DNA of 64,000 nt from Longimicrobiales bacterium. GTDB taxonomy: Bacteria; Gemmatimonadota; Gemmatimonadetes; Longimicrobiales; Gaopeijiaceae. The notes below the pieces were generated by a model that searched no databases, was not told where the DNA came from, and saw only the letters and a list, made by a program, of their open reading frames with translations. Position numbers and translations under genes: made by a program. Positions 20,086 to 20,118 of the stretch are shown here, in pieces; position 1 is the first letter of the stretch, and each line of letters begins with the position of its first letter. The DNA is taken from NCBI GenBank assembly GCA_965115975.1, contig OZ220468.1:629060-693059 (forward strand), read 5' to 3'.

Positions 20086-20118
20086 GGGGGGGGGGGGGGG
20101 GGGGGGGGGGGGGGGGGG
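20086..20118. repeat. homopolymeric G33 tract (C33 on the coding strand of the giant genes)
   Basis: Counted directly: 33 consecutive G, starting 119 nt upstream of the gene A start codon. Confidence 0.95.

Follow-up and report, generated by a model that had tools for sequence, protein, structure and literature searches.

Length-variable poly-C tracts between a conserved palindrome and the sigma-54-type promoter element of giant lipoprotein genes in Longimicrobiales

What is an uninterrupted run of 33 G doing in front of a giant lipoprotein gene, and does its length matter there? The run lies in a window of 64,000 nt (the whole stretch of DNA analysed; 70.4% G+C, zero N), an ordinary piece of chromosome with ffh, rimM, trmD, rplS, a trpS/tyrS-type synthetase gene, dapA and others. 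Only two homopolymers of any base reach 8 nt in the whole window, G33 and G22, and their being the sole such runs in DNA of this composition excludes chance. Both stand upstream of tandem minus-strand ORFs with a strong coding signal, genes A and B, and both read as poly-C on the coding strand (Table 1).

The promoter cassette of genes A and B

The preliminary description placed G33 119 nt upstream of gene A, which the coordinates bear out: from the proximal G of the tract to the A of the ATG there are 119 nt (20086-19967, with 118 nt between), and the coding strand carries C33. It had also reported a tract of another length at the identical position of the sister gene, and G22 is indeed found at the same 119 nt from the ATG of gene B (25433-25314). 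The lengths 33 and 22 are assembly consensus values, which in the homopolymers of long-read MAGs may err by a few nt. Between tract and ATG, the aligned upstream regions of A and B are near-identical; beyond the tract, the similarity is weaker yet clear. The tract had been taken for the boundary of the conserved leader, and this is wrong, as conservation resumes further upstream with the palindromes GTCAGATTTCTGAC (20149-20162) and GTCAGATTGCTGAC (25478-25491).

On the coding strand, the elements follow each other in the order palindrome TCAGAAATCTGA, short spacer, C(n), 42-nt AT-rich segment, TGGCAC-N5-TTGCT, leader of ~50-60 nt and ATG, an arrangement that we call the cassette. Judging from this order, each tract is located upstream of a putative core promoter, between an enhancer-like palindrome and the AT-rich segment. 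C33 and C22 are thus uninterrupted homopolymers of at least ~7 nt inside a regulatory region, between the palindrome and the -24/-12 element. Perfect matches to the palindrome, GTCAG-N4-CTGAC, occur in the 64-kb window at genes A and B only. In gene A, its centre is 113 nt away from the GG of the -24 element, and the transcription start is predicted near 20017. No intrinsic terminator was detected in either upstream region, and the leader matches no Rfam family.

Table 1. Genes A and B and the elements of their promoter cassettes (positions in the window)
Feature	Positions	Strand	Evidence and remarks
Gene A, 1512-aa lipoprotein, GC3 0.94	15429..19967	-	ORF, domain and signal-peptide evidence
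Conserved leader, gene A	19968..20027	-	A/B alignment; Shine-Dalgarno GGAGAG 8 nt before ATG
Sigma-54 type -24/-12 element TGGCACCGAATTTGCT, gene A	20028..20043	-	consensus scan; GG 20042-20041, GC 20030-20029
AT-rich 42-nt segment from tract to -24, gene A, 33% G+C	20044..20085	-	composition, alignment
C33 tract, gene A cassette (G33 on +)	20086..20118	-	direct count; homologous position in 17 cassettes
Palindrome-tract spacer, 30 nt, …ACTTTACAAACGGTGGGGAGT, gene A	20119..20148	-	subtype common to L001 and L012 of the other species
Palindrome GTCAGAAATCTGAC, 6-2-6 inverted repeat, candidate bEBP site of gene A	20149..20162	.	alignment, motif scan; tract-less relatives
Gene B, 1595-aa paralogue of A, 80% identity, GC3 0.92	20527..25314	-	ORF and domain evidence
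Sigma-54 type -24/-12 element TGGCACCAATTTTGCT, gene B	25375..25390	-	consensus scan
AT-rich 42-nt segment, gene B, 31% G+C	25391..25432	-	composition, alignment
C22 tract, gene B cassette (G22 on +)	25433..25454	-	direct count; A/B alignment
Proximal degenerate palindrome copy CCAGTAATCTGA, gene B	25460..25471	-	centre 76 nt from GG
Distal palindrome GTCAGCAATCTGAC, gene B	25478..25491	.	centre 95 nt from GG of -24, the canonical spacing

The cassette in related genomes

Relatives were sought in species-representative genomes. The N-terminus of gene A as a single query returned none in the genome scan; the N-terminal family alignment as query did find them, at 80 loci (L numbers below), all in Gemmatimonadota and mostly in MAGs named 'Longimicrobiales bacterium'. 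The promoters compared are those of genes A and B for the window's genome and those of 16 paralogue loci for the closest genome, OZ241864.1 (a Longimicrobiales MAG of 3.42 Mb), whose proteins are ~58% identical overall and 74-79% identical in the N-terminus. Fifteen of these 16 sampled loci have a coding-strand C tract upstream, ranging from C9 to C26. The lengths listed are 9, 11, 11, 12, 12, 12, 13, 13, 13, 18, 20, 22, 24 and 26, and a further C15 belongs to a second cassette in L015, which precedes another, small lipoprotein gene, so that the giant-gene family is not alone in having the cassette. In that locus, the full cassette (CTCAGAAATCTGACG … C15 … GGCCCCGATCTTGC) spans 150-300, ahead of the small lipoprotein gene (MKLRKLAVVAGVAMTQGAC…).

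The cassette of OZ241864.1 consists of CTCAGAAATCTGACG, 26-40 nt, C(n), 51-52 nt of AT-rich sequence and (C/T)GGCA(C/T)-N5-TTGC, and its leader is longer (~190-270 nt from GG to ATG). Without exception, the 15 runs of at least 8 nt in 86.8 kb of this genome are C tracts of the coding strand that occupy the cassette position, and poly-C tracts of either species are absent outside that position in ~150 kb of DNA from the two. The earlier suggestion that the tract is a maintained, length-variable element rather than noise is supported by these data, given the same place in 17 cassettes of two species, lengths from C9 to C33, and C on the coding strand in every case. The comparison with related MAGs that had been recommended thus gave a tract at the same cassette position in the closest genome, with differing lengths. 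Lengths of 9-33 differ both between paralogues and between species, as read from consensus sequences of one assembly per species.

One spacer subtype, …ACTTTACAAA(C/T)GGTG(G/A)GGAGT-C(n), is common to gene A (C33), L001 (C20) and L012 (C11), implying either that the cassette existed before the two species separated or that it passed from one to the other, with tract lengths diverging in the meantime. Among the paralogues of OZ241864.1, the promoter flanks are 80-91% identical; at this level of divergence, the tract differences may be old, and they yield no mutation rate. In L001-L017, the first 1170 nt of the coding sequence are 95-97% identical versus 80-91% for promoter and leader, which suggests that gene conversion homogenises the 5' region of the coding sequence and spares the promoters. 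L002 (OZ241864.1:573655-579440) is the sole paralogue of that genome to lack palindrome, tract and sigma-54 element upstream of position 2486. It follows immediately after the L006 paralogue, retains the 3' part of the leader only, and may be a promoter-less copy that is silent or co-transcribed.

In the two next-closest genomes (L005, L013), palindrome and sigma-54 element are present and the tract is missing, from which we conclude that the sigma-54-type promoter came first and acquired the tract as a lineage-specific insertion. More distant genera likewise have no tract, yet keep palindrome and sigma-54 element; in 350 kb of their DNA, the longest homopolymer is at most 8 nt. Their promoters contain a site resembling TCAGAAAnCTGA, in many cases as two copies 18-20 nt apart. 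Site arrays were seen in the tract-less L021, L042, L059 and L069 (61/79), L077 (55/73/91), and L052 and L068 (93/113); arrays at 18-20 nt upstream of a sigma-54 element fit multi-site enhancers. In addition, many tract-less relatives share a conserved AAYGACTTR motif ~30 nt upstream of -24. A metagenome scan for the palindrome plus at least C9 gave 18 matches, all of which we dismissed as chance (wrong G+C, no sigma-54 element, C9-12). Fourteen loci (L019, L023-L028, L033, L035, L054, L056, L058, L065, L071) come from bins with names typical of marine-sponge metagenomes (SB066x_bin, RHO1/RHO3_bin, APA_bin), and these names of short-read MAG bins are hints of a host-associated lifestyle for the family.

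We measured the spacing from the middle of whichever palindrome-like site matched best to the first G of the -24 GG. In the 28 tract-less promoters with a detectable site, which represent many genera, it is 93 nt in 15 cases, 94 nt in three and 95 nt in one. In the tract promoters, the distance between tract and GG is near-fixed (43 nt in the window, 51-52 nt in OZ241864.1, 55-56 nt in two promoters), and that between palindrome and tract varies from 26 to 40 nt. Nine OZ241864.1 promoters have total spacings of 93, 93, 94, 94, 94, 95, 95, 95 and 97 nt, and gene B, measured from its distal palindrome, has 95 nt; the remaining totals are 102 (L009), 103 (L012), 105 (L011), 111 (L001), 113 (gene A) and 118 nt (L003). 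Nine of the 16 tract promoters are thus found at 93-95 nt (permutation of tract lengths among flanks, p = 9e-5, a statistic inflated by treating as independent paralogues that are not). Flank and tract combine as 77+18, 73+22, 85+9 and 83+11 to converge on 94-95, and this compensation to 93-95 nt argues that the spacing is under selection. A Rayleigh test revealed no specific helical period among the totals, being dominated by the 93-97 cluster, and six of the 16 totals (102-118) are off any clean 10.5-nt lattice. Some tract-less relatives have a second site at position 113, which is where the gene A palindrome stands; C33 therefore need not mean OFF, and sequence alone marks neither gene A nor gene B as ON or OFF.

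The sigma-54-type element and the lipoprotein family

The consensus of the sigma-54 -24/-12 element is TGGCAC-N5-TTGCW. Perfect TGGCAC-N5-TTGCT occurs in the window at the two leaders only, a count reached in none of 100 shuffles, and the -24 GG and -12 GC are at the exact spacing of a sigma-54 promoter in both (20028-20043 and 25375-25390). Throughout 437 kb of family loci, TGGCA[CT]-N5-TTGC has 47 matches, with 1.4 expected from composition; all 47 are situated 60-420 nt upstream of a family gene, on its strand, and there are none elsewhere. Two sigma-54-like matches with one mismatch, at 57696 and 59749, were rejected as coincidence. Both fall inside paralogous Peptidase_M66 coding sequence, and the coding motif that these genes have in common (…EMARKLLPV…) marks them as non-promoter matches.

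An upstream activator site is indicated by the palindrome TCAGAAATCTGA, which is conserved from genus to genus and centred 93-95 nt from the GG, and we presume that it is a binding site of a bacterial enhancer-binding protein (bEBP). Neither rpoN nor a gene for a GAFTGA-type activator was found in the window or the 80 loci: Pfam annotation of the 64-kb window gave no rpoN and no bEBP, and a six-frame search of the window and the 80 fetched loci gave none of the activator motifs GAFTGA, ESELFGH and GTGKE. In our literature search, we found no documentation of sigma-54 in Gemmatimonadota. In sigma-54 promoters generally, a distance of 100-140 bp from enhancer to -12 with IHF-assisted looping is typical (PMC2709558), and the cell exterior, lipoproteins included, is a recurrent target of sigma-54 control (PMC3162934).

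An IHF role at the AT-rich segment is only suggested by the sequence. The best match to the IHF consensus has on average 1.94 mismatches versus 2.33 in shuffles, a weak signal (p ~0.02), and a site with at most one mismatch is present in only three of 16 promoters. The match is perfect in one of the promoters (L001, WATCAANNNNTTR) and weak in gene A (AATCATTGTGTTT, 2 mismatches). TAA-N4-TTG(W), the reverse of the IHF core, recurs at the same position in the AT-rich segments.

The products of genes A and B start with a lipoprotein signal peptide (…LATIAC|GED), followed by strings of CarboxypepD_reg / SdrD_B / SpaA-type beta-sandwich domains. A contig of 3,064,649 bp (3.06 Mb genome) encodes P0001, to which gene A is 100% identical, and 14 further proteins with 72-90% identity, so that the window's genome has 15 or more paralogues. 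Several family copies each were also found in other genomes of 3-5 Mb. The paralogues of the window's genome all bear lipoprotein signal peptides, and within one genome (A, B, P0001-P0015) these peptides are of several distinct types. In an alignment of 16 paralogues, the N-terminal ~1150 aa are constant, with a mean pairwise identity of 0.85-0.97, and the C-terminal 400-500 aa are hypervariable (0.16-0.5); the last ~280 aa match no Pfam, NCBIfam or PDB sequence. Multicopy families with a hypervariable part are the usual setting for contingency loci. The gene A family suits such a role because of its at least 15 paralogues, its lipoprotein signals and its hypervariable C-terminal part, and we infer that these variable multigene products are exposed at the surface.

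A proposed slippage-prone enhancer spacer and its alternatives

We favour, with reasonable though by no means full confidence, the reading that the poly-C is a slippage-prone spacer which shifts the enhancer relative to the sigma-54 promoter and provides each paralogue with a switch of its own. An activator on the palindrome would reach the sigma-54 holoenzyme via a loop; that this loop is geometrically constrained is suggested by the fixed position of the palindrome, 93-95 nt, in tract-less relatives. The AT-rich DNA within the loop (~43-52 nt) is probably bendable or IHF-bound. Long homopolymers are highly mutable by slipped-strand mispairing, and the one in the loop would gain or lose units by replication slippage, each change displacing and rotating the enhancer relative to the promoter, with a presumable effect on transcription. 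The paralogues would be switched or tuned one by one, and cells would show differing combinations of lipoproteins, each with a constant stalk and a hypervariable distal part. Gene B (C22, spacing 95) would be in the ancestral register, and gene A (C33, spacing 113) would be off by 19-20 nt, which is roughly two turns of the helix. Phase variation at these genes is what we infer from sequence comparison. The tract-less relatives, at 93-95 nt, serve as a natural control whose spacing the tract promoters tend to restore, and the model predicts a peak of activity where tract and flanks add up to ~94 nt, possibly followed by others one or two helical turns out.

That the tracts arose in sequencing, polishing or assembly, as no-signal poly-G, by miscalling or through a chimeric join, would be a natural suspicion, given that long homopolymers are error-prone on every platform and that the short-read MAGs of the relatives show no tracts. 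The run is internal, however, both of its flanks show homology among paralogues as well as across two species that were assembled independently, and polarity and cassette position are the same in 17 cases with none elsewhere. As far as the existence of the tracts in these assemblies is concerned, an artefact is excluded, their exact lengths alone being doubtful, and we regard this explanation as scarcely credible; long homopolymers in long-read MAGs can be real biology and not error. A sigma-70 switch resembling those of Bordetella fim and Neisseria opc, where CTGTAA/CTATAA 6-9 nt downstream of the tract would act as the -10, at a distance from an upstream activator or -35 site that depends on the tract, appears very improbable to us. 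It is true that nearly all of the 17 cassettes have a conserved TGTAAT/CTATAA-like hexamer immediately 3' of the tract, with a TG before it in the two copies of the window (TGCTGTAAT), and that a C-stretch between activator site and -10 has a precedent (PMC1891110). Nevertheless, our consensus scan detected no sigma-70-type promoter with a -35/-10 pair in either upstream region, leaving the -10-like TGTAAT unpaired, and TAA-N4-TTG can equally be read as a reverse IHF core. The sigma-54 element, on the other hand, is perfect, fixed in position and family-wide, including tract-less relatives that have no TGTAA.

A more modest view holds that the tract is a tolerated or structural spacer, be it stiff poly(dG).poly(dC), a G-quadruplex or i-motif, or a site for a protein that binds C- or G-runs, with a length that drifts neutrally or tunes expression slightly, without ON/OFF switching. 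Lengths of 9-33 among apparently intact promoters, six totals off the canonical spacing with no gene decay seen, and paralogue flanks (80-91% identity) old enough for slow drift all agree with it; moreover, certain sigma-54 enhancers tolerate variable distances. We nonetheless think it unlikely. Tract length co-varies with the tract's own flanks, restoring the 93-95 nt that tract-less relatives hold within 1-2 nt, and a purely structural role leaves unexplained why at least 17 promoters have each kept an unbroken homopolymer that is prone to mutation, instead of a mixed G+C sequence. A G-quadruplex or i-motif is not required to account for the data.

Promoter homopolymers known to act in comparable ways (fim, tpr/tp0126, porA/opc, vlp) all belong to sigma-70 promoters and have tracts of ~7-20 nt. 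In Mycoplasma hyorhinis, surface lipoproteins are encoded by the vlp multigene family, whose members have the 5' region conserved and the remainder variable, each with a promoter poly(A) of its own, so that ON/OFF expression is combinatorial. That poly(A) is placed between -35 and -10 and the products are small repetitive lipoproteins of a wall-less Mollicute, whereas the poly(C) of the window would lie in a sigma-54 enhancer loop before genes for 1500-aa beta-sandwich lipoproteins. In Campylobacter jejuni, homopolymer slippage in flgR/flgS is linked to a sigma-54-dependent surface structure; those tracts, unlike the ones here, are outside the target promoter, within the reading frames of the activator system, and work through frameshifts. 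We know of no hypermutable homopolymer in the loop of nifH, glnHp2, Pu or pspA. These promoters resemble the cassette in the GG-N10-GC core, an activator site ~100-140 bp from -12, and a segment that is AT-rich or of the IHF type (PMC2709558, PMC7057263).

In Bordetella pertussis fim2/fim3/fimX, as in the cassette, a poly-C is part of a conserved promoter element of several paralogous surface-structure genes; in fim, the length of this C-stretch sets transcriptional activity (PMC1891110). Each paralogue likewise has a tract length of its own, and the tract separates the core promoter from a conserved box or activator site upstream. The fim promoters are unlike those of the window in using sigma-70 and the activator BvgA with tracts of ~7-15 nt, whereas the window cassette has a sigma-54-type core, a tract 43-52 nt upstream of -24 in the putative enhancer loop, up to 33 nt in length, at least 15 members, and a host in Gemmatimonadota. 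The combination that defines the fim type, a sigma-70 -10 downstream of the C-stretch together with a response regulator, was not found, the scan being negative and the core of the sigma-54 type. The poly-G tracts upstream of tprE/G/J, tp0126 and tprL in Treponema pallidum, and the poly-G of porA and poly-C of opc in Neisseria meningitidis, are also non-transcribed promoter homopolymers of outer-surface gene families, and their length modulates transcription through spacing or activator effects (PMC7864442). They differ in lying within or beside sigma-70 -35/-10 elements, with 7-12 nt or slightly more, where the window's tracts would be spacers of a sigma-54 enhancer.

Full-text literature searches found no report of a slippage-prone repeat tied to sigma-54 enhancer spacing, and none of phase variation in Gemmatimonadota. 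To our knowledge, homopolymer switches in surface-gene promoters come almost only from a few host-adapted pathogens and are always of the sigma-70 kind. We tentatively put forward, as a serious possibility, that the cassettes embody an undescribed mode of control: slippage inside a sigma-54 enhancer loop would rotate and displace the bEBP site relative to the holoenzyme at 15-17 or more promoters per genome, a non-family lipoprotein gene included, generating a combinatorial repertoire of giant lipoproteins in possibly animal-associated Longimicrobiales. It would be the first contingency system of Gemmatimonadota, with the longest functional promoter homopolymers known. If true, the principle would also hold for enhancer-dependent sigma-54 transcription and in a poorly known, uncultivated phylum. 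The giant lipoproteins themselves, at least 15 per 3 Mb genome with a stalk and a variable tip, are probable factors of interaction with, or evasion of, host cells, phages or grazers.

The remainder of the window offers some observations of its own. A group II intron is present in two identical tandem copies with a period of 2024 nt (35828-39859, + strand); each copy contains an RT/maturase ORF (36340-37677 and 38364-39701) along with Rfam matches to D1-D4 and domain V/VI, and the pair is followed by a helix-turn-helix (transposase-like) ORF at 39784-41223. The Peptidase_M66-domain genes mentioned above are tandem paralogues at 56779-63168 on the + strand. Two tRNA genes occur at 11161-11233 (+) and 63183-63256 (-), the former just downstream of rplS and adjoining a long ORF region (11233-15189) with no Pfam match.
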